A stretch of DNA of 64,000 nt from a virus: positions 68,027 to 132,026 of IMG/VR virus record IMGVR_UViG_3300027795_000039. One strand, 5' to 3'. Shown here one piece after another: positions 5,930 through 30,600 of the stretch. Below the pieces are notes generated by a model. The model did no database searches. It saw only the letters and a program-made list of their open reading frames with translations, and was not told where the DNA came from. Made by a program: the position numbers and the translations under genes. Each line of letters begins with the position of its first letter. The stretch's first letter is position 1.

Positions 5930-6274
5930 TCACGTTCTATTTTGACCAGGTGGTCCAGATATACCAGCGAAGGTCGTGGTACCATCCTGCTGCAATCGTT
6001 CTGCCCCAGGCCGGTCCCATTCCATAAGCCACTTCGCGGTCTGGATCTTAAGCTGCTGTGGCGCGGGAATCCAGGATGGCAACTGGGTAAATTTCTTAAC
6101 CCGCTGCACGTCTTCCTCAGTGGGCGGGTAATGGATTCCCTTAAACAGGTGCTCGAACTGGTCAATATCACTGCCATCATAGTGCTGGAAATCCCAGGAT
6201 AGCGTTTTCAGCCAGTCTTCATTCCAGTCATCATTACTAAACGAGTACGGCTGAGTCAAAGAGCTTTCGGTCAC
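5930..6274 (-). CDS. Trp-rich small protein (NEDW family), candidate immunity protein
   Basis: NEDW..SWD...DG...PP...D..RV..FTQLPSW..AP..L; paralogous to 22226..22498 and the MuF N-terminus. Confidence 0.75.
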   Translation of the reverse strand: MTESSLTQPYSFSNDDWNEDWLKTLSWDFQHYDGSDIDQFEHLFKGIHYPPTEEDVQRVKKFTQLPSWIPAPQQLKIQTAKWLMEWDRPGAERLQQDGTTTFAGISGPPGQNRT

Positions 6275-6276
6275 GA

Positions 6277-9200
6277 TCAGCCCTTCGACTTTTCGATCTT
6301 AACCTGCCCCGGTGCTGCCATGACCACCCACTCTCGTTCCTTCAAACAACCGTTACCAGTCCGAGGAGTCGACATGATCAGGTTAGCGGGAACACTCGCA
6401 GCAACCTGAACACCAGAACTACCGTAACCGTAGAACTTACCTGCTTCACCGCTGGCGTGCGACCACGATGACAACGGCCGCCAGTCTGATTCCGCTACAT
6501 CAGCTGTGCTACCGGCTGGCTTTAGCTTTGGGTTAAAATGACTACCACTAGGGTCAAGATTAGTCTTCAACCAATTTGGTATCTCATTGTTTGCGTCAAA
6601 CCCCATCGCTCGGTGAAGTGTAACACTCGTGATACCAGCTTTTTTCAGCTCTCGCTGAGTAACGTTATATTGCGCTCGGACAAATTCGCGAAGTGCAGCC
6701 TGGTTATCGTTGTAGTATTTGTCGACCTGAGTTTGCAGATCACCAGTTTCCGCAGCCCACTTCTTCGCGCTTGGAAGGCCAAACTCATCAGCAGCCGCAC
6801 GCTGCACACCAAGCGCACCGAGGTGACTGTCGTTTGAGGTTTGCTTCCATACCTCAATTGCAGAGCTAACCAGCTCTGCACGGAGGTGACGCTCATCTTC
6901 GGCGGTAAACGGCTCATTTTTATCTGGAGCAAGATCAGCCAGGTACGCTGACAGCAACTTACGTGCCACATCAGCTTCATCAGCTACCTTCAGCTTCTCC
7001 GATGGTGTATTTGAATAAGTACTAAACGGCTTGTAACCAACGCTTCCATAACTACTCGTTACGATTCCTTTACTGGAACCAATCGCAGCAAGCACTTGTC
7101 TTTGCGATAGTGGCAAGCCACTAGCAGCGAGCAATTCTTGTGTTTCCGGTTTCGCCAGGTCTTGCCTCACATCGGCCGGAACCGTGTTCTTATTTTGCAA
7201 CCGGTTTAGCAGGTCTTCAACTATCGGACGGCTTTTATTAGCATTCGCACTAAAATAGTTTCCTGGTTCGTTGAAAACATCAGCGCTGTGATGAACTGAA
7301 ACTGCACTAATACCTTCTTTGGCGATGCTGTTAACTAGTGAATTTGGCAAACGTGAATTGTCATTGTTACCACCGGCCATCTTCGCCATGTCCTGTGTGG
7401 AAACACTACTCATCTCATCAGCAATCAGGTGAGCCGCGTTGTTTTTGTACTTACCAGCATCGCTAGTGTCAACACTTTTACCGGTTACCTTGTTACCGGT
7501 AGCCATGTAACCCTCGGCGATGCTACTGCCGATGTCGCCAACACGGGCGGATGTAAACTGACCAGGTGCCTCTTCAGCTGTCAGCTTCTCGGCGGCTGCT
7601 GGCTTCACCTTAATGGAATCAGCCAGTTTCTTCACATCGGGTGAAAACGACTTTGAGTCATCACCAGCATACTTACCATTCATGACCTTAGCGAGGTTAC
7701 GCAAGCGAGATTCTGCTTCACTTACGTTACCTTCATCATGAAGCTTAGCAGCCTGACTAAGCATACCCTTATACTGCGCCTTGTAGTATGAAGCAATATG
7801 TGTGTTTTCCAGATCAGCACGCAGCTTTGCTGCTCGATCGCCGAATGACTCAAAGCTAAGATCTTTATCATGCTGCTTCTCGAGTGCTGCAAGCGACTTC
7901 TTAAGCCCCGCTCGTGCAGCAGTGATCTTATTTTTTGTATCACCATATGCGTACTTACTAGCGTCAGCGAGTGATATGTCAAGTTTCCGCGCAGACCTGA
8001 TAACATCAGCAGCTTTACCTGCCTTCAACTGGGCGGCTACTGCATCCGAGTCTCTCAGCGATGCTACCATACCACTGCTACCAGGTATAAGTGATTCAGC
8101 ATTCTTTGTCGCATCAGCGATCTGTGATGCCAGCCCGTGTGCCAGTTGCACCGTGTACGGTGTTTCTGGTTTTACTTCACTTGCTTTTTTCAGGCCAGCA
8201 GCCACGGAGATCTTGTCGTGGATGGCCTGGATCGCGTTAATCTGCTTATCAGTGGTATTTGTATTTACACCATCTGTAACATATTGATCGAGGATATCAT
8301 GCAAATCATCGAGTATGCCGTGCAAGCTATCGAGTGCGCCTTGCGTGTTACCGTCAGTTAGCTGACTGCTAACAGCGTCTAGTGTATCTTTTTCATCAGC
8401 AAGAAATGGCAAGCTAGCCTTAGCTGTGGCGATACTAGCCTGAGCGCTTTCCACATCAGCTGACTTCAGTTTTTTCGGGACTTTTTTCAAACCGGCTGCG
8501 ACAGAGAGCTTGTTGTGGATAGCCTGCATCGCAGCGATTTTTTTATCATCATCTGTAGCATCGATGATCTCTTGCAAGTGGCTAAGTGCACCTGGTGTGT
8601 CATTAGCCAGCACTTTGGCTTTAGCATTATTGAGTATAGTTTGGCCAACCAAACCAAATGCCAGGTCCGGATTATTCTGCGCAGCGGTAATACTATCATA
8701 AACTGCTTTAGCATCAGCTGATTTGAGGTTTTTCGGTTTCTTCGGTGCTTTAGTAAGACCGGCAGCTGTGGAAAGCTTGTCATGAGCGATTTGAAGTTTA
8801 CTAAGCGTACTTTCATCATATGTATCAGCATTATCAATTACTGATTGCAGATCACTCAACGCACCGTGAGAATCACCCGCTACCAGTTTACTTTTAGCGC
8901 TTTCCAGTAGTTTATCATTGCTAGTGTGCGCTGCAAAATCGTTTTGTGCTTTTACTATTGCAAGGTGAATTGCCTCAACATCAGCCTGCTTCAACTTCGG
9001 TACCTTTGATGCACTGCCAAGGCCGGCAGCTGCAGATATCTTAGCATGAATAGCTTTAACTGCTTCAGCTTCATCAGAACTGCCGTAATCATCTAGACTA
9101 TCACTCAGTTCATGGAGTGAATCAAGCGCACCTTGCGTGTCACCGTCTGACAATTTCGCGCTGATAACATCAAGCTTGTTGTAAGAACCACTACCAGGCA

Positions 9201-12200
9201 TAAAGCTATTCTGCGCAGCGCTGATATCATTCTTTACACTGCTAAGATCCGCTGCCTTTAGCTTCTTCAGCTTCGGTACATTTACCGGGTTAACCACAGC
9301 TGGTAGCTTACCAATTGGTGGATTCAGCTTCTCATATACACTATCATGGAGATCAGCAATTTCAGCTCCAGGATAACCATCAACATCAAATTCGTATTTG
9401 GCATCTGACAAAAGATCAAGCGCCTTTGCACCGTCACCAGCTTGAAGCGCGGTTTTTATCGCGCCCAATACTTGGTCCGCGTGAGGATCACCGCTAAAAA
9501 GCGTCAAACCATCGATATCATTGATTTCATTACCGAAGTCTGGTGATCCGGCACCAGTTACAGCTGACACATCAGGTACCGGTTTACCAGCAGTCAGTGC
9601 ATCTTGCAACAAGCTAACCTTATTGCTGTTAGCCAGGTCACCATCACCATTAAATGCATCAATGGCACCCTGAAGGTGTTCTTTGACATCATCGATATTG
9701 CCTGTATTCAACGCCAGGTATGCATCTGTTAGATGACCATTTGCTTGAATGTTTGAGGCGTTGTTATTTATATCTGCGATGGCATTTTGGTATGCATTAG
9801 TATCAATCGCAGGTGATTTCGCCGGTATAGCTGGTGAATTTTTCAGCTGGTTTTCAAAACTAATGGTGTGGTTAAGCAGATCGATGTCACCAGTCATCAC
9901 TGCGTCACTCTTCACTTTATCAAGTGAAGCTGCTGCGACGGCTTCTTTACCATCAACCAAGTGTGCTGACGCTTCATTGAGATGAGCCGCTGCCACCGGA
10001 TCTGTCGTCACCTGCGACAAACTTGCAAGGTTATCTGCAAGTGATTTACTCGGGTCCGGCTCCCAGTTCGCTACACTTTGGTCTACCAGGTGTGCTGCTG
10101 GTTTTACTTTTTTACCGAGAAGCGCATCATGAATCTGCTGGACTTTACTCGCATTCATGATATCATCTTTATTACTACTAGCGTACAACACACTAGTCGC
10201 ATCACTGAGGTGTTCTACCGCGTTAGTGGTATTCCCCGCACCAAGCGCATCGTATGCCAGCGTCAGGTGATCATCTGCATCACTGCTCGCAATATGATCC
10301 TGCGTCTGGGATATAGCATCCATGTACGCATTAGTATTGATATCTGGCTTTAGCTTTACTTTTGGTTTTACTGGGTGAGCCACATCAGATGAGTGAAACG
10401 CCTCATTAGAAAGCTGGTACATCGCATGAGCGAGAGCCATGTCGTGCGTTCCATTACCAGCTTGAGTAAGAAGTTCTCCCGCCACATTATGATCACCACT
10501 TACCAATGATGCAGCGGCTGATGTCAGGTAATCTTTTACAGCTTCATCTGATGAAAGATCATGAATCGCAGCTATCTTTTGTGGCAACGCGCTTTGAGCG
10601 AGAGCAGCGTCGATTGGTGAAACAGACGGTGCACTAGCTGGTTTTATCGCTTCACCAGCTGCTTCATCTGGTTCTCCCAGCAGGTCCTTCTCCCACTGTG
10701 CCATGTAAGCATCTGGTTTTACTTTACCAGCCTCAAGTGAAGTGCCGATTGTCATCGCTTGCGAGGCGACATCGTGCTCACCTTGCGCGTTCAATGCGAC
10801 AGCGGCTGCGGCAAGTTTAGTGCTCGCTTTATCATAGTCACCGGTGTTAACCGCCGCATACGCGTTTGTTAGATGCTCGTGAGCTGTCCAGTTTTCCAGT
10901 GGTGGAACCTGACCAGTCAACTGCTCAATCGCGTCTTTATACGCTTTATCGTTAACAGATGATTCACCGGGAATGTAACCGTAGGTATCTTTGAAGTCTT
11001 CTGGACTTACATCTGATGGCAGTTTACCAGTTTCCTGGTAGTATTCCTCACTGGTCATCAATCCTTTATCCCACAGGTAATCTGGGCTGTTTTTATCAAC
11101 TGCCACTGGTTCAACAGGCTTGGCAGCGAGTTTGTCCTTCAGCGCCTGCAGTGCCTCTTCAGAGGCGATCTGGTCTTTTGTTTTACCAGCTGGTGCACTT
11201 ACCGCAGGTGCGTTCAACGGCTTCGGTGCGTCTGATAGTGCCAGACCAGTATCATGAATATGCGTCTGAAGCAACTTATTTGGTTTAAAGAACAGATTTG
11301 CTGCTTCTTCAGCTTTCGTCAGCTCAACACCAGCGGTAACATGATCACCAGCAGCGAGTGCTGTTTTTGCCTTTTCAAGGTGATCAGCAGCTTCATCGCT
11401 GGCATCTGGCTCTTTAGCACGATCATTCAATACTGATACGTTGTGATATAGTACAGCTGATTTTGCTGCGTCAGCTCGATTTGCGAATGTACCACCAAGC
11501 TTTACTTTCTTACCATCCGCACCGTGGTGCGTCATCGAGTAGGTACCATCCGCGTTCTTCCGCAGCGCACCGATCTGGGTACCATCACCAGCGAGTACCT
11601 TGCCATTTTTCGTGTTAAAAACAGCCTCGCTGTATTGCGGTCCACACGGTGGTCTTACGCAGATGTAACCGTGTATGTACCCTTCTTTGCCAACCTTTAT
11701 CAGATGGGCAAGGCGGATGATGATCTTACCGGCCGCGTTTTTCCTAGCAAATGATACTGGTTCCCAGTTACCAGGAGCATCATCATCCCGGTTGTCTTCC
11801 TCTTCCGGTTCCTCGTCATTTTCTTGCTGTCCAACCAGATCATACGGCACCAAACCACTAACCGCACCAGAACCAGCAACCGCACCAGCGGTAATGTTCT
11901 TGGTAACGAATTCCCAGACCGTCGGCAGCTTCACAACATCATCTGGAGATAGCTCAGGTACTGGCTTCAGTATATCATACATCACGGCGGCACTGCCAGT
12001 CGAGTGACCAGAAATTTTTATAAATTTATTCGCGGAAGCCTGGCCATTGCTAATCTGATAATCATGTGTCTGGAACCACGGTGAATTCTCATTATCTGAT
12101 GGCACGAAACCGACATATGCTTTAACAGGGCGGTTTTCTTTCCGGTACGCTAGTGCACGATGATGACCGTCCACGATCTTCAGCCGATCATCACCTGGTA

Positions 12201-12558
12201 CCTGCACCCCCACCACGGGGTGAACATCATTGTCAGCGCTACGGATTCGCTTCCGGAATTCCTTAACCCGCTTACCCTGGTGACTCGCTGCCCACGAGTT
12301 CACATCATCCCAGTCAACTCGGTCCAGTGGAATCTCAACTGGACCAATCCACGGGATGGTGCGCACCCAGTTAATACTATTGGGTGGGTAATTTGCGAGT
12401 AGCTGCTGGTAAACGTGCTCGGCCTCGACCGGATTCGGGTCGTGGAGGTTGGCAGCGTTTTTATGCAGTTCATTACCGTTGAAGGAACCATAATCAAACG
12501 ATACCGCGGCATCGTGATGCCAGTTTCCAAGAACACGTGATACATCAAGAGTTGTCAC
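6277..12558 (-). CDS. 2093-aa polyvalent protein: ParB/Srx-like domain, GYIHG tag, helical repeats, C-terminal ART-like toxin
   Basis: GTG 12558 overlaps the upstream stop, GAGGA upstream; IVDGHHRALA; KVGKEGYIHGYICVRPPC; LHRAM..RPLSSWS..KEREWVV. Confidence 0.88.
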   Translation of the reverse strand: MTTLDVSRVLGNWHHDAAVSFDYGSFNGNELHKNAANLHDPNPVEAEHVYQQLLANYPPNSINWVRTIPWIGPVEIPLDRVDWDDVNSWAASHQGKRVKEFRKRIRSADNDVHPVVGVQVPGDDRLKIVDGHHRALAYRKENRPVKAYVGFVPSDNENSPWFQTHDYQISNGQASANKFIKISGHSTGSAAVMYDILKPVPELSPDDVVKLPTVWEFVTKNITAGAVAGSGAVSGLVPYDLVGQQENDEEPEEEDNRDDDAPGNWEPVSFARKNAAGKIIIRLAHLIKVGKEGYIHGYICVRPPCGPQYSEAVFNTKNGKVLAGDGTQIGALRKNADGTYSMTHHGADGKKVKLGGTFANRADAAKSAVLYHNVSVLNDRAKEPDASDEAADHLEKAKTALAAGDHVTAGVELTKAEEAANLFFKPNKLLQTHIHDTGLALSDAPKPLNAPAVSAPAGKTKDQIASEEALQALKDKLAAKPVEPVAVDKNSPDYLWDKGLMTSEEYYQETGKLPSDVSPEDFKDTYGYIPGESSVNDKAYKDAIEQLTGQVPPLENWTAHEHLTNAYAAVNTGDYDKASTKLAAAAVALNAQGEHDVASQAMTIGTSLEAGKVKPDAYMAQWEKDLLGEPDEAAGEAIKPASAPSVSPIDAALAQSALPQKIAAIHDLSSDEAVKDYLTSAAASLVSGDHNVAGELLTQAGNGTHDMALAHAMYQLSNEAFHSSDVAHPVKPKVKLKPDINTNAYMDAISQTQDHIASSDADDHLTLAYDALGAGNTTNAVEHLSDATSVLYASSNKDDIMNASKVQQIHDALLGKKVKPAAHLVDQSVANWEPDPSKSLADNLASLSQVTTDPVAAAHLNEASAHLVDGKEAVAAASLDKVKSDAVMTGDIDLLNHTISFENQLKNSPAIPAKSPAIDTNAYQNAIADINNNASNIQANGHLTDAYLALNTGNIDDVKEHLQGAIDAFNGDGDLANSNKVSLLQDALTAGKPVPDVSAVTGAGSPDFGNEINDIDGLTLFSGDPHADQVLGAIKTALQAGDGAKALDLLSDAKYEFDVDGYPGAEIADLHDSVYEKLNPPIGKLPAVVNPVNVPKLKKLKAADLSSVKNDISAAQNSFMPGSGSYNKLDVISAKLSDGDTQGALDSLHELSDSLDDYGSSDEAEAVKAIHAKISAAAGLGSASKVPKLKQADVEAIHLAIVKAQNDFAAHTSNDKLLESAKSKLVAGDSHGALSDLQSVIDNADTYDESTLSKLQIAHDKLSTAAGLTKAPKKPKNLKSADAKAVYDSITAAQNNPDLAFGLVGQTILNNAKAKVLANDTPGALSHLQEIIDATDDDKKIAAMQAIHNKLSVAAGLKKVPKKLKSADVESAQASIATAKASLPFLADEKDTLDAVSSQLTDGNTQGALDSLHGILDDLHDILDQYVTDGVNTNTTDKQINAIQAIHDKISVAAGLKKASEVKPETPYTVQLAHGLASQIADATKNAESLIPGSSGMVASLRDSDAVAAQLKAGKAADVIRSARKLDISLADASKYAYGDTKNKITAARAGLKKSLAALEKQHDKDLSFESFGDRAAKLRADLENTHIASYYKAQYKGMLSQAAKLHDEGNVSEAESRLRNLAKVMNGKYAGDDSKSFSPDVKKLADSIKVKPAAAEKLTAEEAPGQFTSARVGDIGSSIAEGYMATGNKVTGKSVDTSDAGKYKNNAAHLIADEMSSVSTQDMAKMAGGNNDNSRLPNSLVNSIAKEGISAVSVHHSADVFNEPGNYFSANANKSRPIVEDLLNRLQNKNTVPADVRQDLAKPETQELLAASGLPLSQRQVLAAIGSSKGIVTSSYGSVGYKPFSTYSNTPSEKLKVADEADVARKLLSAYLADLAPDKNEPFTAEDERHLRAELVSSAIEVWKQTSNDSHLGALGVQRAAADEFGLPSAKKWAAETGDLQTQVDKYYNDNQAALREFVRAQYNVTQRELKKAGITSVTLHRAMGFDANNEIPNWLKTNLDPSGSHFNPKLKPAGSTADVAESDWRPLSSWSHASGEAGKFYGYGSSGVQVAASVPANLIMSTPRTGNGCLKEREWVVMAAPGQVKIEKSKG
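8190..9270 (-). repeat. four ~85-aa helical repeats inside the 2093-aa protein
   Basis: KLK.ADV...I..AQ....KL..GDTQGAL..L......AIH.K.S.AAGL occurs four times; boundaries approximate. Confidence 0.7.
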
Positions 12559-13303
12559 GTGGCACTTCCTCAACCGTGATAACACGCAGATTAGGATAAT
12601 CGTGGTGGTTTTCATTGGAGACCACGGTAAACTTACCGGATGGTGCCACGTACTCCGACTGGTATGCGTACTTCGGGTCACCATACCAGCTAACCGGGAG
12701 TGCGTGAATTCCAGTGATATTCCTGAGCATGACGTTACTGAGATCGCTTGAACCGGTTGGATCACTTAGCTCACTTGACTGAGAAAACAGGTGAGCGACG
12801 CGCTCATCACTCGACCATGAAGCACTGTTATCAGTCGTAATTGTATCACCTGGTCTCAAGTTTTTCACCTGGTCAATCACGGCTTTTCGTTCGTCATAAT
12901 CAGAATCACCGTTGCTCGTGTGAATACCGCGGTACAACGGTTTTTTCGTCACGTATGGCGAGCGCTTAACCACGTGCTCAACATTCAACAAATCCTGGTC
13001 ACCAACAGCACTACCAGCGTATTGAGTGCGTTTCATGATTCCACGTTTAACACTGGTTTCATCTGGATCATCATCGCGCAGTTTATCGAGATGTGAGATA
13101 CGACTTGCGATGTCAGTCGCTTTTTTATCATCAAAACCATGACGTGTGACTGGAACAGCATCACCCGGACCAACATTGATCCATCCGTGGATATACCCTT
13201 CAGGACCTACCTTTACCAGCTCACCGACTGAAACAGACACGCGAAAACCGGCCACGGCTCGCGGGATTCTGATATCTCGTACCGCAACAGCCATGGCCGG
13301 CAC
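12545..13303 (-). CDS. single tagged ADP-ribosyltransferase
   Basis: KVGPEGYIHGWINVG then PLYRG..ASWSS..YQSEY; the start could be 13294. Confidence 0.82.
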   Translation of the reverse strand: MPAMAVAVRDIRIPRAVAGFRVSVSVGELVKVGPEGYIHGWINVGPGDAVPVTRHGFDDKKATDIASRISHLDKLRDDDPDETSVKRGIMKRTQYAGSAVGDQDLLNVEHVVKRSPYVTKKPLYRGIHTSNGDSDYDERKAVIDQVKNLRPGDTITTDNSASWSSDERVAHLFSQSSELSDPTGSSDLSNVMLRNITGIHALPVSWYGDPKYAYQSEYVAPSGKFTVVSNENHHDYPNLRVITVEEVPRDNS

Positions 13304-14202: not shown

Positions 14203-17200
14203 TTATGTACCACTCGCTTTGAATCCACCGAGTTGATCGTAATTAGGCATATTTGGCTTTACTACTTCGGAACCAGCTACTTGTACCGGTGTCTCACGTG
14301 ATTTTACACCAGCTTTTTGCAATGCTGCCAAACCTTTTTCTAGCCGCAATTGCACCGTTGTCATTTTTTGAAGATCTTTTTTATCTTGATCCTCCACGTA
14401 CGCACCTCCACCACCTGTGTACGTGGCAACACTGATGTGAAATTCTGCGATTTTATCATTTGTGTGCGCCAGATCTTCCTGCGTTACTTCCAGCGCGCGT
14501 GATTTCTCTTCTGATGTCGCGGCCGGATCTTTAGCGATGGTTATGGCATTCCAGACCTTCCATGGAATACCGCGTTTAGTTAGCTTATCGGTAAGAGATT
14601 GTGGCGGTTTTTTATCAAACAACACGTGGTCAATGTCATCAGGCGTAAGTGGTCGTGCCTTACCATCTGATGAGTGAACCTGCACTTCATTGTACGCATG
14701 CTGACGGAAGTTGGGACTAGTGTAATCACGATTCATACCACGTAGTCCACGTGCTTGCATGATGCCATGTTTGTAGGTAGATTTTCCTGGCTCAATGATA
14801 CTCGGTGTACCTTTATCATATGCAGCGAATGACCGCGTATCCGGATCCAGCATCCGCGATGGCATGCTGGCTTCACTGTTGTTCAGCGAGTCACCAACGT
14901 TGAATGTCGCATGTTGCTTAACCGCGTCCTTCAGCACCACCTGCGTGGTACCAAATGAAGAAAGCTGGTCGGTGTTAAAGCCAAACCAATCGTTTACACC
15001 AACGCCAGCTGGCCGATCCACCCCATCAGTCACGTAGCCATACACCGGACGAAGAGATGGGTCCATGTTTTCCGGGTAACCAAACCACGTCCTCTCAAAC
15101 ACCGCACGGGTGTGATTGGACTTAAGTGCCTGTGATTTATTTGTCTCAAACTGCGTTTTGAACGCGTTGTCATCGAGGATGTGCTCAAGGCCAGGGTTGG
15201 TAACGCGAGTGGCAATATGATGAGATGCGATACCGCGTAGCTCTTCACGCATCTTCTCATCCGCGGCTTCAGGCGTAAGGCCGGCCTCAGCTGCAACGGT
15301 CGCGCGCTGCTCCTCATTTGATGCAAGCAACGCGGCCTTTTGTCGTACACTCATGTTGGCATCAAAGTCATTTTCATCGATACCGCTCTCGCGTAGCACA
15401 TCAGGGATGGTTCGCGGTGCGTAACCAAGGTCACCTGGGTTCATCGAGAGGTTGCCATCGCGGATCGCGCCAGCTTGGTACTTCAGATAATACGCGCGTT
15501 CCCTATCCGCTGGATCCGCGCTCTTATCGAGCGTGTTTGCTTCATGATCCAGCCGATTGGCCTCGTTTACCAACTCGACAGCCTCGTGTGGCGGATCAGC
15601 GCTGATGGGGGCAACAGATTTTACTGCTGGTTCAACTGGTTTTATTATCTCAGAGCCAGGAACCTGCACTGGCTTAATCTCATTCGTTTCTTCTGGCGTA
15701 AGAGCCCGAAGTGTTATATGACGAGTTGGCACACGACCAACGAGCGGCACGTGCTGGTCACGCAATTCATCTTTCTCGATGACGTATTGCTGTCCACGTG
15801 GAATCGTGTATTCGCCTTCATCTTCATCTTCAGGAAGATTACCTGTTACACTTCTTGCATCGAGAGCCTTCGTGCCGGCTGGCATAAGAATATGAAGCAT
15901 TGCATGATCAGAACTTACTTCACCACTACGCCCGAAACCTGCTGCAACCTCATCAAAAGCAGAAGCTGAATTATAACCTGAATCAGAATACACCTTACCG
16001 GTGTGACTGTCAACATCCCCGAAGAAGCTGTTAGCGTTAGCGATGCCGCGACTTAGTTGAACATCCTTTGGAAATGCAGGAGTTTTACTAAACGCAGAAT
16101 CTATCAAACTAATTTTCGTTCGCGCATCTTGAGCGGTAGGACCTTGTGTTATTGCTGAATTACGTAGGTAACTATTTACTTGCTTGTATCCATTTAGGTA
16201 AAAATCATCGAGATTATTTTTTTCAGCTGGTGTCAAGTTTTTTGCGCGGCCATATGTTGCATCTTGAAGAGCATCACCGGTTATCGCATCTTGTAGTCGT
16301 TTATCGACTGAAACTGATGCATCTGGTTTTGATGCCTTTGAATCAGGAACCTGCACTGAATTACCAGCACGTGATATGACTCGCGCTTGAACGTGCAGTT
16401 GCCCATCATCATCTTTGTGAACACCGGTAACCGTGTATTTAGTTCCACGATCCAAGACCAGTTCACCCGCACCACCGTGACCAGGCAATGCATGAGTACC
16501 AGCCGGTACGTTCATGCTCAAAACAGCATTGTTTTTACCAGCTTGACCTGGCACCAAACCTTGCTGTTTCGCCCAGTCCTCAGCCCACTGTTTACTAGCT
16601 GAGGTTGACATGTACCCTGGATCAATTACCTCATCACCGACACGTGGTTCTTTACCCGGCTCAACAGTAATAGCACGGTGTACCATCGCATCGTATGATG
16701 TTGTACTCTTCGCCATGGCACCATCGAGGTTATCCATGATGTCTTGGGCGGCATCACTTCTCGGTGCACCATTACGCAGACTCGCATTCAACCTGCGTGC
16801 GGTGTTCGGCAGCGTATACTGACTGCGTGCCCATTCCTCATCAGAAGTAAGCGGTGAGCTCAGCGTGGTTTTTACTGGTTCAACGAGTGACGGTTCAATT
16901 TCACCAGTTAGCGCGGTATCGCTTGGCTTCGGCTCAACCGCGTTTTCACCACTCAGCCCCGTTCGGATGTGGTCTGCATGAGATGCCAGCCCATCATCAC
17001 CACCTGCTCGCGCGACATTCGCCGCATCTCGGAGTGATGACGTCGCACCATCCACATCGCCAGCTGCCAACGCGTCGCGGGCACTCGCTACCGCATCTCT
17101 CGCCTCACCAGGCTGCATCTCACCGTGCATCGCGCTCAGGTCATGGTACGGTACCACGGTCATCGCAGCTTCGCCACGGTTCGCGTACGTGCCACCGAGC

Positions 17201-21135: not shown

Positions 21136-22229
21136 GATTGCCACCATTGGCTCTTGTTAGAAAATGACTGCCAGGCTGCCTGGTCGTGAACCTGCCATGT
21201 GGTGTTTAGTTTTTTACTACCAATGAGTGATGGTCTACTTCCATTATTATCCCACAGTTCGGCTGAATCAAAGAGGTTATCATCAAGCGCACTGCGGAAG
21301 GTATTCGTTACTGCGCTATGAGTGTCTCGTACCACGCTTTCCGGTACCACGCGACCAGTTACCGCAGCTCGCGCGTTCTCTCGGCGGACCGCTTCATCGG
21401 TATCAACGGTAATGTACTTAGCAGCCACCTGGTACCCAGCATCTCGCGCCTTCGCCAGCCGGTCCTGAATCGCGTTATACCTACCTGTACCAGTACTATC
21501 AAAGGTAACGTTCATGCCGTGTTGCAATGCATCGTGGTAAACTCGGCTGGCAATCAATTTTGACTCATCGTGAGTAAACAATGCTGCTCGCGGGTCACCA
21601 TCCGCAATCATCTGCTGATACTCGGGAAGCTGCGTTTTGATTTCATCAGGATCAACGTGCACGTCAGTACTCGGAATCTTTATCACCGTACTTTTCCCAC
21701 TCGCGGTACCACCACCGAGGAACGTGGCAACTGGGTGATCTGATGTAGGATGGTTGGTAAGAATCTTGGTGATGATCTGACGGTGAAGCTTCTCACGTTC
21801 TGGATCTAGCTGGCCATTCCTGGTATGACGTGTTAGTGAGCAATCGTAATCAGGTGCTTGAATGCGACCTTGGATCGGTGACACGTCACCGGGGCCGACT
21901 TTGATCCACCCGTGGATATAGCCATGCGGTCCTACCTTGTTAATTGTACCAACGGCTTTCACCACCGACCCATTCCGGATCGTGGTATCAGTTGCACTGT
22001 TAAGCAGTGTTGGTAGCACAAGTTTGAATGCGGGATGAAGTGGCAGTGACTTCATCTCCTCAGGCGTGAACCAGCCCCAGTCACCGTTTTCCTCAGGTGT
22101 TTCACCATCAAATGACGGCCAGAACGTCTCACCCGCGTCAGTCATGAAGGTGGTGTACGCCCAGCCGTTGCCATGGTCATCAGTCACCGCGTGGCTAACC
22201 TGAACCGATGGTATATCGTTACCACTCAT
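21132..22229 (-). CDS. C-terminal NUDIX half, GYIHG tag and zeta-toxin-like P-loop kinase
   Basis: ATGA overlap at 22229; WAYTTF..WFTPEEMKSLPLHPAF; GGTASGKST, VDPDEIK, HDES, FDSTG. Confidence 0.85.
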   Translation of the reverse strand: MSGNDIPSVQVSHAVTDDHGNGWAYTTFMTDAGETFWPSFDGETPEENGDWGWFTPEEMKSLPLHPAFKLVLPTLLNSATDTTIRNGSVVKAVGTINKVGPHGYIHGWIKVGPGDVSPIQGRIQAPDYDCSLTRHTRNGQLDPEREKLHRQIITKILTNHPTSDHPVATFLGGGTASGKSTVIKIPSTDVHVDPDEIKTQLPEYQQMIADGDPRAALFTHDESKLIASRVYHDALQHGMNVTFDSTGTGRYNAIQDRLAKARDAGYQVAAKYITVDTDEAVRRENARAAVTGRVVPESVVRDTHSAVTNTFRSALDDNLFDSAELWDNNGSRPSLIGSKKLNTTWQVHDQAAWQSFSNKSQWWQS

Positions 22230-22498
22230 GTTACTGGTCCACTCAGGTGGTTGTATGCTGCCAGGAACTGCCCTGCCTCGACCTTCAGCTGCCGTGGCGC
22301 GGCTTGCCAGCATGCCAGCTGGGTAAAATCACGAACACGATTCACATCGGCTGAGCTCGGCGGCTGTGTCACCTCCGGCCACATCTGCGCGAACGTGGTA
22401 ACGGGTGTACCATCGTGATTCCACAGGTCCCAGCTGCCAAGCTTCGTCCAGTCCTCATTCGCATCAGCTCGTGAGAACGGATATGACCAGGTGCTCAC
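22226..22498 (-). CDS. Trp-rich small protein (NEDW family), candidate immunity protein
   Basis: NEDWTKLGSWDLWNHDG..PP...RVRDFTQLACWQAAP. Confidence 0.75.
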   Translation of the reverse strand: MSTWSYPFSRADANEDWTKLGSWDLWNHDGTPVTTFAQMWPEVTQPPSSADVNRVRDFTQLACWQAAPRQLKVEAGQFLAAYNHLSGPVT

Positions 22499-22506
22499 GT
22501 GTCATC

Positions 22507-24351
22507 CTAAGAGTATCCATCATCACCAGTGGATGATTCCTGTATAATTACATCACCAGGTGTGCTCAGCACAACCCATTCACGTTCACTCAAGCTGCCG
22601 TTACCACTTCGTGGTGTGGAGAACACTCGCTCCGCGGGAACACTGGCTTTAATCAACACGCCGGGACCATTAGAACCGTAATCTTGGTAAAACGCTGCCG
22701 CTTGAGCATCACTTGATGACCACGATGATAGTGGGCGAGCATCACTGGTATTAAGCGTGGTAAGTGCGCCTGGTACCTTAATTGGTCGATCATTATCATC
22801 ATAGCCACTGCCAGTTGATTTCGGCATCGGACCCATCGCCCATTCCGGTGCTTCATTAACGCTATCCCAGTTCATACCACGATACAAACTGACGTTCTTG
22901 ATACCAGCTTTCTTCAGGTCTTGTTGCGTCAGATCGTATTGCGCTCGGACGAATTTATGAAGTGCTGGCTGGTTTTGCGTGTAGAATTCGTCTGTTTTCC
23001 GGCGGAGAGTGGCGTCTGAGTCTGTCCATGGCATTGCGTTTTTAATACCGAGTTCATTCTCAGCTGCGTGTTGCACAGCCAGCCCAGCAACGTTGTGGTC
23101 ATTCGATGACGCGGCCCACAAGTTCACCAGGCTACTCGTTAGCTCAGCGCGAAGTTCATGTTCATCTTCATCAGTCATCATGCCATTACCGGCGAGTTGT
23201 GAGTAAAGGTTTTTCCGGTGACGAGAAATGATATCAGTTGCTTCTTGCTGAATCAACTCAGCTTTTTGGTAACGCTCAGCTTTTTCACCAGGCGAGAGAC
23301 CTGGTACCAAGTCACCGCTGAACAGACTCTTGAGTCGTTCAACATCTTCATTTGACATACCTTGCTCACGGAATGTATCAGCAGTATTAATAATGTCCTG
23401 TGCCGTAAATGAGTCTCCCGGCGTCCAGTTATCTACTGCATCAAGTGTGCCATGCGCCAGCCCAACCGCGTCCAAAACGTGTCCAGCATCATCAGCTACC
23501 TGAAACTTATCTCGTGGATTTTCATCCACACCAGCATCAATTGCACTCGGTCCCACAGCTGCTACAGCCGAGACAACTGCATGCCTCAACCGTGAATACT
23601 GCTCGTTACCAAGCGCAATTTTCGCCAGATCTTGGGTAGAAACATCACTCATTTGTTTCTCAAGACGCTGACTAACTTCTTTTTTGTAATCAGGAGCTTC
23701 CTCGTTATACACGGTTCCATTAGAATCTGGATCACCATTGGCAAGGAAACTTTCAGTCTTATCAAATGATAGGTCATCATCACGTGACGCGCCGAGTTTC
23801 CCCGCTTCGGCGGTTGCGGTATCACCAAGGATACCAGTAGTACCATCACTGAACCGAGCGTAGAAACCATCAGAACTGCCGCTGATAATGTGACCGGGGC
23901 CGTGAATCGCGTGGGTAACCGCATCACCGGATCCGCATGGTGGGTTAACACAAATCCAGTCATGGATGTAGCCTTCCTTGCCCACCTTCTGGATTATACC
24001 AGGTGAGGCACTGCTATCCACTACACTAATCTTACCAAGTTCTTCATTCGCTTCACGAGTGGCACCTTCGAGTGGTGTCTCACCCGGCAACAGCGCCCCA
24101 CCGAACGTGCCCCACTTCCCAGCATTATCAGCTGCGGTGCTGGCACGCTGCTGCAGCAGGTATACCACATCACCATTCGGTCGCCGGCCGCGGATCATCA
24201 GCCCAGCCGCACCTTCAGCACCACAATGCTTATGACCAAGGCCACAGGTGATAGATTTCTCACCTTGATGACGTTTTTCAACATCAGAATCTGCACTTGA
24301 TTGCAGTTCAGCAAAGCACGTGGAAAACCACGGGTCAAATGTAACGGTCAC
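22507..24351 (-). CDS. N-terminal NUDIX half, tag, Tudor-like domain and C-terminal ART-like toxin
   Basis: Nudix box GGALLPGETPLEGATREANEELG; KVGKEGYIHDWICVNPPC; LYRGM..RPLSSWS..SEREWVV. Confidence 0.85.
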   Translation of the reverse strand: MTVTFDPWFSTCFAELQSSADSDVEKRHQGEKSITCGLGHKHCGAEGAAGLMIRGRRPNGDVVYLLQQRASTAADNAGKWGTFGGALLPGETPLEGATREANEELGKISVVDSSASPGIIQKVGKEGYIHDWICVNPPCGSGDAVTHAIHGPGHIISGSSDGFYARFSDGTTGILGDTATAEAGKLGASRDDDLSFDKTESFLANGDPDSNGTVYNEEAPDYKKEVSQRLEKQMSDVSTQDLAKIALGNEQYSRLRHAVVSAVAAVGPSAIDAGVDENPRDKFQVADDAGHVLDAVGLAHGTLDAVDNWTPGDSFTAQDIINTADTFREQGMSNEDVERLKSLFSGDLVPGLSPGEKAERYQKAELIQQEATDIISRHRKNLYSQLAGNGMMTDEDEHELRAELTSSLVNLWAASSNDHNVAGLAVQHAAENELGIKNAMPWTDSDATLRRKTDEFYTQNQPALHKFVRAQYDLTQQDLKKAGIKNVSLYRGMNWDSVNEAPEWAMGPMPKSTGSGYDDNDRPIKVPGALTTLNTSDARPLSSWSSSDAQAAAFYQDYGSNGPGVLIKASVPAERVFSTPRSGNGSLSEREWVVLSTPGDVIIQESSTGDDGYS

Positions 24352-27300
24352 AGTGGTTTCACCTGCCGGACGTTGACCACGAGAGTGCCATCACCTGCGA
24401 TACGAGTACCAGTCACCTCGAAGTTACCAGTGGCAAGGTACTCACGTTCATTAAAATAGGCCGGGTTACCGGCGAGTCGTTCCAACGGCAACGCTTTCTT
24501 CGGACCATCCACCCAGTCCAGCAGCACTGGTGTCGTGTTTTTAGCCGTGACGTGCTGGCCACCTGATACGTGGCTGAAGCTTCGTCCTACATCTGCGTTT
24601 GAAGAAAATGAACCGAGTGAGATATCAATTGGTGAACCAGTCTTATACCGTTCAGCAGCATCACCTGGAATCATCATACCGCGATACAGGTGCTGTTCAC
24701 TAACATCAGAGTCACGGATCGCGCTGAGAAGCAAGTTTACAGTTTTCTTCCGTCCCGGCGTGATATCACCACCGTTTACTGACTTCTCTACATCGGTACG
24801 GATTCGCGCGACCTGCTTACCACCTGTGTTTTGGAACGTGTCCAGAATCTTAACGAGTGCCTTGCCATCCGGCGTTTTCTCTAGCTCATCCAGCGCCTGA
24901 TACCGCTGGTTCATGTTGAACTTACCACTGCGGGCTGGTTTCAGTACCGCTAGGTCTGACCGGAGCTTAATATCCGGTGCTGGCACAACTTTCGGCGTCT
25001 TCTTATCAAGTGCCGCCTGGATATCAGCTCGGTCCTGGTCGCTGATGTTCCGTTTCAAGTACTCACGCAGCTGCGGTACCTTAGCCATCGACCAGTGTTT
25101 AACACCTGCAGGCTGCGGTGTTACTCGGTTAAAGGTGTGGGTGCTACCATCATCGAACTGGGCGGTGACGTGTTTTTCATCATGGCTGGTAATAATACCG
25201 TGGCCGAGTGAGTCATGCTTAATTTCATCGCCCTCGCCTGGTATGCCGACGAAGATCCAGCCGTGGATGTACCCCTTGGCGCCAACCTTCACCAAGTTCG
25301 GCTGCCCGAGTGGTACCAGATTGAAACCGGGTAGTGGCTCCACGGTCATATCAGAGAGGTCGAAGTCACCAACTGACATCGGCGATGCGGCACAGCGACA
25401 GTTTGGATGACCAGGTGGTGCGTCAACGCCATTCAGGAATGCCTGGGAAAGTGGGATTGATCCTTCTGCTTCCGCAGCACGGCAAATTTTACACACGCGC
25501 TCATCTGGAGCAACTAGCCAAGATTTCATAGAAACACCAGCAGCAAGATACTGGTCCAGTGAGGCGGCCGATGACGCTCGTGAGATCTCAGTCTGTGCGA
25601 TCATCTGTGCTCGTGATGGTACGTTCAACAAACTCGAGATATCACTCGCCAGGCTATTCGCATCTTGCCCTGTCGCCAATGCAATACCAATGTACTTAGC
25701 CAGGTCATCGAGTTTGGTAGAAGACACGGACTGGATGGTATTAACGCCCCACTGGTGGAGAAGCTGTTGCAATCGTGGGCCGGTACCAATCTTCAGCGCG
25801 GATTCAACATCACCTGGTTCCCATTCGCCCCAGTCTGGGCCAGTAGCATACTCGGGATACGGATTGGTGCCGGTGTTAAGTTTGATAACAGGTTTTATTA
25901 CCGACTTCCCCAGCGCCACATTCATGGCTGATCGAGAACCGGTAATCGTTACCTGTTGCGGTGAAAACGCAACCATCTCATTGATTTTGCCATCTTTACC
26001 GCGTTGGATGATGCTATCGTGACCACGTTTTTCAGCTTCATCACGGATTGCGGTAGACAACTCATCTTGGGAGGTACTCGGATGCGCCGCACGATACTGG
26101 TTCTGAAAACTCCACACGTCATCATCAGCGCGGTTTGCCATACTTGAGTCCCACGGGTTTTTCACGTTAACCCGAGTGGATAGTACCTTTCCATCATCAG
26201 CAGCTATACCATACGTTGCAGCATAATCAGGTCGCTCAGTTAGGTAGATGCCCTCGCCGGCCCAGCCACGATTACCTGAATTTTCACCGATATATGATTC
26301 ATCAAATCCGTGATCGGTAATTGATGTCGCTTTATCACTGCTGGCGGTGCCGTGGTACATTTCTTGCGGTACAGCTGAATTTTTAGCCCAGTTAATGGCA
26401 TCATTATCATCTTTAGCCGGTGACCAGCCAGCAACTCTTTTCCAGCCGTGAATATAACCTTTTGGTCCTACCTTGGTAATCATCGCTGATTTTGTCGTAC
26501 CAACTGAACTCAAATCGTTTAGCTGAGTCGCCTGGACAACGAGCCGGCCACCTCGCCCCGTGGTAACGCCATTAACACGGTACTTACCACCAGCAATCCA
26601 TTCTTGCTCATTGGTAACCTGGACACCATCACGGGTGAATGGCGTCTTCGACATGTCAATGCCTTTACTACCGGGATCAACTTCGAGTAGCACGGAGCTA
26701 TCAGCGGAAGCAAATTCTTTCGCTGACTCACGGTCCTCAGAAAACGATGATGCTGGAATGGTAAACGTATTACCTGGCGTCATCTGAGACATGAATGCTT
26801 TGGCTTTATCCTGGTTATCCCAGGTCCATGCCATTCCACGGTAAACTGGTTTACCTGAGGTTTCGGGATGCCGGAGGCTTTCAGCGATTGACCGAGCGTG
26901 ATCCGGTATTTTAGCATCATGATCACTGATACCATGAGCGATATCATCGTAACTAACTTCACCGTGCTGCCAGGCTGCTATCGCATCTGGGTCAACTTTT
27001 ATCCACCCGTGGATGTAGCCTTTTGGCCCCACTTTGGTAAGAATGGCAGATGCTGATGCGGTGGATGCTGGTGCTGCTGGTAGGTTAGCCAGCACGTGTC
27101 GCGCTGAAATCGCACCAAGCGTGTACCCATCGGTCCACAGTGGTGTGAGCACCGGTCGCAACGCTGCTGCGATACGATTCCGTACCTCTTGTGCAGCGTA
27201 GGTGGGAGTGACGCGAACTTCGCCAGTGATGAGCTGGGCGAGGAATGAGCGAGCGGAAGCCATGCCATCGGAGAACGCGGCTGCGATCTGCGGCGCGTAG

Positions 27301-27608
27301 ATGCTGGCGAGTTGCTGATCGCGTTCCCAGCCGGGCCACTGCGCATCGGTTACCGATTTGCTGGCGCTACCAATTGACACTGGGTCAAGTAGCTCAGCAA
27401 CTTCATGCTGAAGTGTCGCCGGGGCAGCCTGCCACGACGGCAATGACATAAGCGAGCGCAGGTACTGGAGGTCAGCCAGCATCGGCGGATAACCATAGCC
27501 GGGGATCAGCTGGCTGAGATCGGTAACTGGTGAACCGTCATCGTTCCACCGATCCCATGACCGGGTACGAATCCAATCTTCGTTCAGATCAGTCAAAGAT
27601 GCCGTCAC
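24348..27608 (-). CDS. MuF / SPP1 gp7-like head morphogenesis protein carrying three tagged ART modules and an N-terminal NEDW domain
   Basis: GTGA overlap with the portal stop; RAQMIAQTE..KSW..DERVCKIC..PPGHPNCRC; ART motifs VYRG..SSFS..EQE, MYHGT..GIYLT..Y..E, LYRG..GSFS..ERE. Confidence 0.9.
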   Translation of the reverse strand: MTASLTDLNEDWIRTRSWDRWNDDGSPVTDLSQLIPGYGYPPMLADLQYLRSLMSLPSWQAAPATLQHEVAELLDPVSIGSASKSVTDAQWPGWERDQQLASIYAPQIAAAFSDGMASARSFLAQLITGEVRVTPTYAAQEVRNRIAAALRPVLTPLWTDGYTLGAISARHVLANLPAAPASTASASAILTKVGPKGYIHGWIKVDPDAIAAWQHGEVSYDDIAHGISDHDAKIPDHARSIAESLRHPETSGKPVYRGMAWTWDNQDKAKAFMSQMTPGNTFTIPASSFSEDRESAKEFASADSSVLLEVDPGSKGIDMSKTPFTRDGVQVTNEQEWIAGGKYRVNGVTTGRGGRLVVQATQLNDLSSVGTTKSAMITKVGPKGYIHGWKRVAGWSPAKDDNDAINWAKNSAVPQEMYHGTASSDKATSITDHGFDESYIGENSGNRGWAGEGIYLTERPDYAATYGIAADDGKVLSTRVNVKNPWDSSMANRADDDVWSFQNQYRAAHPSTSQDELSTAIRDEAEKRGHDSIIQRGKDGKINEMVAFSPQQVTITGSRSAMNVALGKSVIKPVIKLNTGTNPYPEYATGPDWGEWEPGDVESALKIGTGPRLQQLLHQWGVNTIQSVSSTKLDDLAKYIGIALATGQDANSLASDISSLLNVPSRAQMIAQTEISRASSAASLDQYLAAGVSMKSWLVAPDERVCKICRAAEAEGSIPLSQAFLNGVDAPPGHPNCRCAASPMSVGDFDLSDMTVEPLPGFNLVPLGQPNLVKVGAKGYIHGWIFVGIPGEGDEIKHDSLGHGIITSHDEKHVTAQFDDGSTHTFNRVTPQPAGVKHWSMAKVPQLREYLKRNISDQDRADIQAALDKKTPKVVPAPDIKLRSDLAVLKPARSGKFNMNQRYQALDELEKTPDGKALVKILDTFQNTGGKQVARIRTDVEKSVNGGDITPGRKKTVNLLLSAIRDSDVSEQHLYRGMMIPGDAAERYKTGSPIDISLGSFSSNADVGRSFSHVSGGQHVTAKNTTPVLLDWVDGPKKALPLERLAGNPAYFNEREYLATGNFEVTGTRIAGDGTLVVNVRQVKPL

Positions 27609-30600
27609 GTTACCGCCGTCACCTTCCGCGACGAGTCGACGCCGACGCTGCCAGGCGCGGCCATGATCACCCATTCTTCTTCCAGCAAGCAACCGAACCC
27701 GGTGCGCGGGGTGCTGAATACCAGCTCGGCCGGGACCGTTGTCTTTAGTACCAGCCCGGTCTCACCTGAGGTACGCATCTCATCGGTGTAAGCGAACTCA
27801 TTGGCTACTGTAGCCGCGCCGGACCACGATGAGATTGGGCGCCACTTCGGCGCGCTAACCTCATCTCCAGCCTTCATCGCCTTACCGTCATCACCAAATG
27901 CCCACGGCGCGGTATCGCCGGTGACGTGCATCCCGCGGTAAACCGTGACGTGGGTAATCCCAGCGGCCTTCAGGTCAGCTTGGGTCCGGTTGTATTGTGA
28001 CCGGACCATGGCCCGTAGCGCCTTTTCATTCTTAACGTAAACGTCGTTTACCTGGTCAGCCACGTCACCTGACTCCTTGGCCCAATCGGCCACGTTGCTT
28101 AGCCTCAGCTCATCGGTTACGGCGCGCTGCGTGGCCAAGGATAGGATGTCGTTGTCGTTCGATGACATGGCCCAGCGGGCGATGATGCTTCTGAAAGCGT
28201 TATCTCTGATTTTCTTCAGATCATTTTCGGTAACCGGTGGTAGGTCAGCTCCATGACCAATCTGGTCAGCCTTCTTCATTAGCGCGGCTTTAGCCGCTTC
28301 CACGCCGCCGTCATCCTTGAACTCCGGTAGGTTCTTCTCGGTAAACCCACGGTAACCGGGAAAACCAGGCGTTAGCTTAGTCATGGCTTCCAGTGACTGG
28401 CGATCGGTGATTTTAGCAGCCACGGCTCGGATGGCGTTCGCCTGCGCTTTGATCTTTTTCACTGACACTGGCCCAGCGTACGCCATTACGTAATCATCCG
28501 GATGCTCGGCTACGTCGGGGTTCACGCCTGGATCGATGGTAGTGCGATTGCTGCTGATCTTCAGCAGATCAGCGGTGCTGAAGTCCTTCATGTCCTTAGC
28601 CAGCGCCGCGGCTACCGACGCCTTCAGGGTAGGCGCATCGGCTTTCTTTACCTTACCAGCTCGACCAGACAGCGGCTGGTTCAAGAACGCTCGTAGTTCA
28701 CCGGTTACCTTCGCTCCAGGAACAGCAGTAGCAGATGTTCGCGGGGTACCATTAGGAATTGCAGCGTGAACTTGAGCGTAAGGTGATTGCTCACTGAAAT
28801 CATGCCGGGTTTTACCGCTATTGTAATGACCTGCCAGGGTGCCTAGCGCGTTATCACGGCCAGCATGACTGGAAACGTGGCCATCTGAATGAGTAATTAC
28901 GTACTTACCGTTGTCATGCACGATGCTACCGACCTGGTAACCGGAAGGTTTGTGCATTATCGTGCCATTACGTTTGACCTGTAGGTCTGAGGCTTTAATC
29001 TTGTCCGGTTTTTCGCCACATGGCGGCCTTACGCAGATGAAACCGTGAATGTAACCATCTGGTCCGACCTTCAGTACGTCAGCAGTTTCCACTCCACGAA
29101 AGGGGGCGGCGCCAGTTTTAGCCACATCTTCTACTATATCAACTGGTTGACTGTCTTGCCACTGGTAGTCACTCTTCGCCAGCACCACGTCACTCGCACG
29201 TGCCTTCGCCAGATTCACCGCGTTACGTGGGTCCAGCCCCTCGGCCATGGCCTTCGCGACGTTAGCGAGCAATGACTCCGAAATGTAGCGTGCTTCCCAC
29301 GTGGTAACGTGGCGGCCCTTGGTAAGGTGGCGAGTAAGTGCCTCGAGTTCGGCATCCGCTCGTTTTTGAGCGAGGTTACCAGCGTAAAGTGGGTGTGAGA
29401 TTTCCTGATTAAGACGTGGATCATCATCATCCCACGGGTTGATCGCGGCACTGGCGATCTGCTGATGACTGTATGGCATCCGCCGGATAACTTTGACTGG
29501 TGCAGCGCTCCGGTAATTCGGTTCCACATCGTAACCATTACTTGCGGTGGCGTGCTGGGAATCGCGTTCGAATTGCCCGGTGGGCTCCACCTGGTACACG
29601 CTGTACCGGTCATCTTTCGGTGATTCCGGTTCCGGGTCATCACGCATACCCGCGTACTCGGCGGCGCGTCCAGGATCACGAGTTAGGTAAACATGATTCG
29701 GTGAGGACTCATCATGTGAACCAGTGCGCTCACTACCCGGCACCTGGCTCGCTGGGCTGATCAGATCACCAGGGCTGAAGTGTTTCGTGGTACCGTGGTA
29801 GAACACCGGTTTAGCATCCACGGCTGGCCCCTCGTGAACCCAGCCGTGGATGTACCCCTTCGGACCCACCTTGTTGATCACAACTGAGGCAGCAGACTTC
29901 TTGGTACTCGCTGCTTCACTGTTTGCGGCCTGCGCCGCGTTGTGAGCTGGTGTCGGTTTACCACTCTGCGCCGCATTTTGATTCTGAGCTGCTTCGGCCT
30001 TACCTTCCGCACCAGCTGCACCAGTTGGTTGTGGCTTAGCGCCACCAGGCATACCAGGCGGCACCGTCGGCTCATTCATCCGGACCTCATGTGACTCTTG
30101 CGAAATTTGAGTCCGGGCTTGCGTCGCTGCGGTATTCGCCTGAGTAGCACCGGTCTGTGCTTGAGTCTGACCAGCTTGCGCCTGGGTCTGCTGAGCCTGG
30201 GCGGCGGACTGGGCAGCGGCGTTCTGCGCATTCGCCACGGCGGTGGAAAGCGGGGTGGGACCGGTGGGTGTAACGATAAGCGGCTCAGACGACTCTTCGA
30301 GGCCGTACGGCTGCAGGTTCAGTTCCTGCCGGCACTCATCGAGAGTACGCATGCCATTCTGGAACTGCTGGACGAGGACACCGGTGAGGGCATCCATGTC
30401 TTCTTCTTGCTGCAACCCCTCGAAAGTGAACATCATGTCGGTCTGGCCGCACACGTGCTCGAGGATGCCATTGAAGATGTCCTGCAGGAACTGCAGCATA
30501 GGCGTGATATTCACGTCTTGCGAGTTATTCTGCGTCATCTTCGACATCTGGTTCGCCGCACCAGATGAGGTTGATGATGACCGGCCTGGACTAAGGCCGA

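Follow-up and report, generated by a model that had tools for sequence, protein, structure and literature searches.

An R-S-E-type ADP-ribosyltransferase-like domain of viral cargo proteins and the partner module encoded directly after it

Results

The 64,000-nucleotide (nt) stretch analysed here (hereafter the window) covers positions 68,027 to 132,026 of IMG/VR record IMGVR_UViG_3300027795_000039, a 132-kb provirus record, a window position being the record position minus 68026. Its head and cargo genes encode several copies of a domain resembling ADP-ribosyltransferases (ARTs), which we refer to as the ART-like domain, and a small module that we call NEDW. Our principal finding is that the conserved gene order gives good support to NEDW as a dedicated partner of this ART family. 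The genetic arrangement establishes that the partner would be made directly after the enzyme or within the same chain, and it may serve to mask it.

A profile built from the five copies located the ART-like domain in exactly five places in the 132-kb record (E-values from 6e-51 to 7e-86), all on the minus strand of the window. Three copies end proteins, namely the portal (27623..28195), a 614-amino-acid (aa) protein encoded at 22507..24351 (domain at 22531..23139; the copy for which a structural model was made) and a giant protein encoded at 6277..12765 (6283..6876). The other two are internal to a 2314-aa protein encoded at 14203..21147 (18610..19125 and 17437..17901) and are followed by the tag peptides KVGPEGYIHGW and KVGKEGYIHGY, respectively, and not by NEDW. 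A preliminary description of this DNA had placed the repeated domain at the same three protein ends and in the same two internal positions, and the profile search recovered it in each. One gene limit needs revision, as the open reading frame (ORF) at 6277 can open as far as 12765 rather than 12558, while the domain at its end stands. The five copies share 24–46% pairwise identity, and the R of [YH]R[GA], the S-W-S and the E-x-E are invariant among them.

The NEDW module begins with an acidic peptide, the DW peptide, whose last residues are N-x-D-W-[IV]-K; a four-helix domain of about 55 aa (W-D ... L-P-x-W-x-A-A-P) usually follows. D, W, D and P are invariant in the module, which has no conserved arginine. 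In a profile search the record contained exactly three copies, with E-values from 1e-42 to 1e-53, again on the minus strand. Two are free genes: P0004 (90 aa; 22226..22498, module 22235–22495), which starts 8 nt past the stop of the gene for the 614-aa protein, and P0005 (114 aa; 5930..6274, module 5948–6256), which starts 2 nt past the stop of the giant gene. The third forms the N-terminus of the MuF protein (27306..27602), for which the likeliest start codon is GTG 27608, in a GTGA overlap with the portal stop; P0014 begins at the same residue. The interval from the ART-like stop to the NEDW start at the three junctions of the window is −4 to +8 nt. NEDW therefore follows all three C-terminal ART-like copies of the window, twice as a free gene and once as the N-terminus of MuF, just as had been noticed beforehand. 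Next to the two window proteins that end in ARTs of other families (MuF and P0010) NEDW was found in neither case, and none of the cargo proteins P0003, P0006, P0007, P0008, P0009 and P0010 starts with it. Downstream, the P0004 stop overlaps the ATG (22229) of a zeta-toxin gene as ATGA, and the gene after P0005 starts at ATG 5922. With five ART-like and three NEDW copies, the proposal that the pair has been amplified within one genome was borne out.

All three NEDW reading frames are −1 relative to the upstream ART-like gene. Fusion of the two products by frameshifting was considered and excluded at the 22507/22498 junction, because the stretch from the stop to the start contains a TGA in the downstream frame.

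The pair was followed outside the window in 40 other viral contigs encoding ART-like relatives, taken together with the window. An ART-like copy was counted as C-terminal when it lay within 40 aa of the end of the reading frame, and a partner was an ORF starting at most 60 nt from the stop with the motif DW[IVLTA][KRQDAE] in its first 45 aa; near-duplicates were collapsed at about 90% identity. These sequences hold 50 full-length ART-like domains, 31 C-terminal and 19 internal. A DW-motif ORF comes directly after 29 of the 31 C-terminal copies and after 20 of the 22 distinct ones, the exceptions being L024 and L036. Among all ORFs of the same sequences the motif is present in 39 of 3254, true cases counted in, and away from ART-like ends in about 10 of 3254, which is approximately chance level. 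Chance as the cause of the pairing was rejected on the comparison of 29/31 with 39/3254. It had been stated in advance that a lack of co-occurrence in other genomes would speak against a pair; the pairing was found again in metagenomic proteins and in numerous unrelated contigs of viruses.

The partner ORF typically starts at −1, −4, −8 or −14 nt, offsets that fit with translational coupling. It takes the form of a free protein of 55–114 aa, of the N-terminus of a long protein, or of the acidic DW peptide alone followed by unrelated sequence. The long proteins with an NEDW N-terminus include a prohead protease (L016) and DUF7178 proteins (L015, L023 and L029). The former, a prohead serine protease (Peptidase_S78) encoded at L016:6532-7971, is the immediate downstream neighbour of a protein that has two copies of the ART-like domain. 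The upstream carriers of the ART-like domain include portals (window, L037 and L038) and NUDIX, ParB-like, HNH, DUF7178 and VG15 proteins.

When loci were instead seeded with NEDW, all 10 distinct ones were found to hold an ART-like domain. In the evaluable loci it lies directly upstream in three; in four, 158–350 aa intervene, and in two none is upstream. Pentapeptide repeats (A-N-L-x-G-A-N-F) were seen in L065-L069 at residues ~1140–1323 of the upstream ORF, between the ART-like domain and the stop before NEDW. In the actinobacterial prophages L060 and L072 (Kitasatospora) the free NEDW gene comes after the gene of a MuF-type protein; 1.3 kb downstream are two ART-like genes, neither of which is succeeded by a DW ORF. 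Among cultured phages the ART-like domain was found in Bacillus phage SP-15 only (30% identity), where a terminator follows the domain and the DW motif is absent; NEDW had no match in cultured phages.

A profile of the three NEDW sequences retrieved no viral locus and just four small and two fused proteins, and a 15-sequence profile gave 482 cluster representatives (50% identity) at E <= 1e-3. Architectures were counted for the best 148 of these 482. The largest class is made up of 79 proteins of at most 130 aa. A further 20, mostly of 135–200 aa, end in NEDW with another small domain ahead of it, and apart from 37 N-terminal fusions the remainder have internal NEDW (8), several copies (3) or a match below threshold (1). 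In the N-terminal fusions the Pfam matches were ADPrib_exo_Tox (4), Zeta_toxin (2) and Peptidase_S78, Phage_Mu_F and GNAT (1 each), most of these proteins being without a match. A second small conserved domain (W-x-D-x-x-G ... E-Y-D ... R-T-Y) was noted ahead of NEDW in P0045, P0068, P0073, P0075, P0089, P0098 and P0101 (139–176 aa), a class of free proteins in which the DW motif often reads D-L-[IL]-K.

Fusions of the ART-like domain to NEDW in cis have linkers of 23–73 aa. In P0016, a 7059-aa metagenomic representative, 11 ART-like and 10 NEDW domains alternate strictly with linkers of 28–41 aa, and the junction peptides are near-identical (F-N-I-D-A-S-P-M-D-A-D-W-I-K-T-L-S-W-D-L-P). P0015 (452 aa) joins a relative of the 90-aa NEDW gene, at 76% identity, to a tag of the kind that stands behind internal ART-like copies and to a C-terminal part resembling, by eye, a degenerate ART-like domain (L-S-S-W-A, no E-x-E); P0034 (452 aa), with the same layout, matches the ART-like profile at 292–443. 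A search of the ESM Atlas with P0004 returned no usable match by features, and TM values of at most 0.43 by structure.

Neither the ART-like domain nor NEDW has a match in Pfam (E <= 10), PHROGs or PDB sequence profiles beyond chance-level rows (GDSL lipase, DUF5736, phrog_6475, Piwi and MRE11), in keeping with the initial impression that both families are unnamed. The five ART-like copies matched no Pfam ART family (ADPrib_exo_Tox, ART-PolyVal and others) even at E <= 10; named Pfam ART families do match other domains of the same window proteins. In an alignment of 39 ART-like homologues (20–46% identity), W12, Q76, R91, P172, G185, E189 and E191 are invariant, G92 is nearly so and S143 is kept in at least 90%. 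The AlphaFold2 (AF2) model built on this alignment has a predicted local distance difference test score (pLDDT) of 85.1 and a predicted template-modelling score (pTM) of 0.82. Three helices stand ahead of the core, R91 lies in strand 86–94, the S-x-S is on strand 141–145 and is followed by helix 148–156, and E189/E191, the E-x-E of the ADP-ribosylating turn-turn (ARTT) loop, lead into strand 191–195.

In a VIA exhaustive fold search the model reached Z 5.5 to HopU1, Vis and SpvB, 5.3 to Tre1 (6drh_B) and 4.9 to 8s2m_B, with iota-like also among the matches; nearly all of the top rows were R-S-E ARTs, a Z below 8 being not decisive alone. Foldseek, which had been suggested as a check, gave nothing at E <= 1e-3, and its weak rows were mostly ARTs. 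The iterated ART-like profile also touches other ARTs of the window. On the motif, the topology of the model and the enrichment of ARTs among the fold matches, the clear reading of the modelled domain is an R-S-E ADP-ribosyltransferase (cholera-toxin / C3 / VIP2 type), which upholds the cholera-toxin-type assignment first made from the motif. Judging by its conserved residues, the domain is probably active as an enzyme and, by the E-x-E rule, probably arginine-directed. It would presumably also be toxic.

The tag K-V-G-x-x-G-Y-I-H-G-W, often continued as I-C-V-R-P-P-C-G, was observed in thirteen copies at module boundaries of nine cargo proteins, on the minus strand at window positions 3766, 5889, 11691, 17388, 18465, 19668, 21932, 23982, 25283, 26468, 27029, 29065 and 29866, and it is the tag seen in P0015. 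The tag end G-W-I-K-V-G resembles the NEDW start D-W-I-K-V-G, and the tag replaces NEDW after both internal ART-like copies of the window and after one in L043. Another motif, H-P-R-x-x-x-G-R-F, stands before ART-like modules in the ORFs of L072:5472-7614 and in the N-terminal parts of P0121 and P0141, and may be another module-start signal.

The genes described above belong to a tightly packed run of head and cargo genes on the minus strand (window 1037–31882). The portal gene (27605..31882) encodes a Phage_portal domain and an 850-aa extension, in which a rifampin-ADP-ribosyltransferase-like (Arr-ms) domain (29480–29815, portal residues 694–800; Pfam E 2e-8) precedes the ART-like domain. It is followed by the MuF gene (24348..27608; 1086 aa), with its NEDW N-terminus, ART-PolyVal, Phage_Mu_F and further R-S-E ARTs. 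In the 614-aa protein (22507..24351) a NUDIX N-terminal half, a tag and the ART-like domain succeed one another, the Pfam NUDIX match at its start covering the N-terminal half only (profile positions 13–59 of 134). The zeta-toxin gene (21132–22229, start ATG 22229) has a Pfam Zeta_toxin match, and the 2314-aa protein (14203..21147) contains ADPrib_exo_Tox domains beside its two internal ART-like copies. The giant protein (6277..12765; up to 2162 aa) ends in the ART-like domain, and its N-terminal region is ParB-like by eye only and without a Pfam match. Beside these genes and the NEDW genes, the run encodes two more cargo proteins.

The large terminase gene lies at 41778–43286, and its relatives, of at most 45% identity, come from mixed hosts, many of them actinophages. 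We also observed a further ADPrib_exo_Tox protein just upstream of the portal (32372–33517) and, on the other strand, a GIY-YIG/NUMOD3 homing-endonuclease-like gene (33619–34632). Near the terminase, Pfam places Phage_portal with Arr-ms, Phage_Mu_F with ART-PolyVal, and NUDIX, Zeta_toxin and ADPrib_exo_Tox domains. Together, these genes make up the part of a phage or provirus of about 132 kb that serves head morphogenesis and cargo; its portal, MuF and several giant proteins, 'polyvalent' in the sense of Iyer et al. (2017; PMC5512222), bear numerous effector domains.

Discussion

Since most of the partners are small and free, the coupling is specific to this ART family and tested precedents exist in the same setting, we tentatively favour, at a little short of an even chance, the reading that NEDW binds and masks the ART, as an immunity protein or as an auto-inhibitor. 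NEDW, encoded right after the ART as a coupled small gene, as the N-terminus of the next protein or as the next domain in the chain, would bind the ART that has just been made and keep it masked in the producing cell. Masking would last until the cargo has been packaged, cut apart and injected with the DNA. The sequences directly show the domain family, its conserved catalytic motif and a genetic coupling that recurs elsewhere, from which we go on to infer physical binding, inhibition, toxicity and delivery in the virion. A partner that acts in trans is supported by the dominance of free NEDW genes and by the L060 and L072 gene 1.3 kb from the ART-like genes.

The layout of a polymorphic toxin pair, on which the preliminary description was modelled, holds in part. 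The same C-terminal domain is found on differing carriers and a small gene lies downstream, but immunity as a separate polypeptide does not describe the family, in which 20 of 21 internal NEDW domains are in cis and 37 of 148 representatives are fused.

Several observations weigh against the masking reading. In those 37 representatives NEDW is the N-terminus of a longer cargo or head protein, and of 21 NEDW domains whose start lies past residue 200, 20 (all but that of P0062) have an ART-like domain ending at most 100 aa upstream; both kinds of fusion are unusual for an immunity protein, which ought to stay behind. In many loci the conserved part is the DW peptide of about 15 aa alone. AF2 modelling of P0121, a natural cis fusion, gave confident structure for the ART and for the NEDW helices, and for the DW peptide (residues 398–419), as for the linker, a pLDDT below 50. 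Moreover, the partner follows 6 of 18 distinct internal ART-like copies as against 20 of 22 distinct C-terminal ones (Fisher p = 2e-4); the 12 internal copies that lack it include both in the window, and their catalytic residues are intact. This bias suggests that what the partner accompanies is the end of a chain and not the enzyme itself. As regards the counts themselves, the profiles were built on the same loci that were later counted, the loci were picked by similarity to the ART-like domain, and the reverse test, with nine evaluable distinct NEDW-seeded loci, is looser. A complex prediction from the ART-like and NEDW alignments scored 0.00 and, run without controls, is not evidence either way.

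The tie to chain ends (20 of 22 against 6 of 18) is also a point in favour of a docking or junction module, to which we give a minority chance. The C-terminal ART-like domain would bind the N-terminal DW peptide or NEDW module of the next virion protein, so that cargo is strung together non-covalently and co-packaged, and the cis-fused forms would be the same chain left unsplit. The stop and start are always located in the 20–60-aa linker that leads up to the DW peptide, with interconversion between cis and split forms. NEDW is N-terminal in MuF (window and P0136), the prohead protease of L016, DUF7178 proteins, zeta toxins and ARTs, and there are proteins with NEDW in front and an ART-like domain at the C-terminus (L042, L019, P0029 and P0034). 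A portal bears the upstream ART-like domain in the window, L037 and L038, and PMC5576092 describes the SPP1 MuF protein gp7 in complex with the portal. The ART-like domain and DW/NEDW could then form a matched docking pair like the docking domains of polyketide synthases, through which a split cargo polyprotein would still assemble head-to-tail on the portal; this we regard as fairly unlikely. In the boldest form of the idea, the DW peptide would sit in the NAD+ cleft, and the chain would hold in the NAD+-free capsid, then come apart on exposure to the NAD+ of the next host and so activate its enzymes. However, 79 of the 148 NEDW proteins, like two of the three in the window, are free proteins of at most 130 aa that tether nothing, and the free NEDW gene of L060 and L072 adjoins no ART-like C-terminus. 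The invariant R, S and E-x-E are also left unexplained unless the cleft itself is the docking site.

Conservation of the short peptide alone in many loci agrees as well with a signal that marks the start of a cargo unit, for capsid targeting or for the prohead protease, and makes no specific contact with the ART. It would follow the ART-like domain just because that domain usually ends a unit. Peptidase processing of polyvalent proteins has been proposed in an excerpt of PMC5512222, the DW peptide is disordered in the P0121 model, and DWIKVG resembles the GWIKVG of the tag that stands in after internal copies (window and L043). We nevertheless consider such a signal very unlikely: the cargo proteins P0003 and P0006–P0010 do not begin with the DW peptide, the motif is at about chance level away from ART-like domains (about 10 of 3254 ORFs), and the free NEDW proteins of 70–114 aa would be signals joined to nothing. 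Alternatively, NEDW could serve the ART as a cofactor or activator, or be its substrate; it might, for instance, be ADP-ribosylated itself or set the choice of target. The coupling data that support masking would support this role as well, and the cis fusions with their 23–73-aa linkers fit a working two-domain unit. Cholera toxin (with ARF) and ExoS (with 14-3-3) are R-S-E ARTs that need protein cofactors, and both complexes are rows in the Foldseek and VIA lists of the ART-like domain. Nevertheless, intact ART-like copies without NEDW exist, and NEDW is no obvious substrate of an E-x-E enzyme because it has no conserved arginine; we regard this role as most improbable.

It is known that phages deliver enzymes into the host along with DNA, and that small immunity genes accompany some of the toxins of head modules. 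Both the combination of a head-module toxin with a small partner and polyvalent cargo proteins are already known. Excerpts of Jamet et al. (2017; PMC5576092) describe MuF polymorphic toxins of temperate phages with small downstream immunity genes, which resemble the present pair in having a toxin-type enzyme at the C-terminus of a head-module protein and a small ORF directly after it. The part of PMC12226406 on Apk2 MuF toxins reports binding immunities, and that of PMC11699363 on the prophage ART Bxa reports that it is blocked by a small binding protein, Bsi, with BAH also in the system; Bxa is an ART and Bsi blocks by binding, the likeness to Bsi being by description only. Unlike in MuF toxins, the carrier here is a portal or an effector polyprotein and MuF carries the partner N-terminally; in many cases the partner is joined in cis to the ART or else to the protein that follows, and it may be reduced to a short peptide; repeats of the pair occur inside a single phage and inside a single protein; and no Pfam ART or Imm family is matched.

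Polyvalent proteins, in the passages of PMC5512222 that deal with ARTs, are giant multi-domain proteins near portal, MuF and terminase genes in which ARTs are the commonest enzymatic domain, with 12 copies of one ART in one Pseudomonas prophage protein. In the present case the R-S-E family is a frequent component, and those passages mention no partner domain. The Tre1–Tri1 (6drh) and TreX–TriX/TreTu–TriTu (8s2m, 8s2n) systems have an R-S-E-type ART fold, to which the present domain bears a weak likeness at 9–18% identity, and an adjacent small inhibitor. They differ in being secreted interbacterial toxins (type VI secretion system or Rhs) rather than virion cargo, and in having immunity proteins that are always separate polypeptides. 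Tri1 occludes the active site with an N-terminal extension. Alt of phage T4 is not known to have a partner or inhibitor gene, and Alt/VIP2-type domains (ADPrib_exo_Tox) are separate in the window and are not followed by NEDW. According to PMC5512222, Alt is an R-S-E ART that travels in the phage head and enters the host with the DNA, as is proposed for the present family. No description of the ART-like/NEDW pair was found in the literature searched, the supplements of which may list such domains. The R-S-E ART family, the partner family, its behaviour in cis, in trans and as an N-terminal fusion, and the repetition in one phage and one protein appear to be new relative to the literature searched.

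Overall, these results introduce a family of R-S-E ARTs in virion cargo that has no name and appears to be widespread, together with a partner that differs from a classical immunity protein in being free, fused after the enzyme or fused ahead of the next cargo or head protein. Should NEDW prove to be an inhibitor, it would represent a general way of silencing injected enzymes in the cell where they are made; as a docking module, it would explain how unanchored cargo enters capsids. Either answer would allow the annotation of many 'hypothetical' genes in phage head modules.

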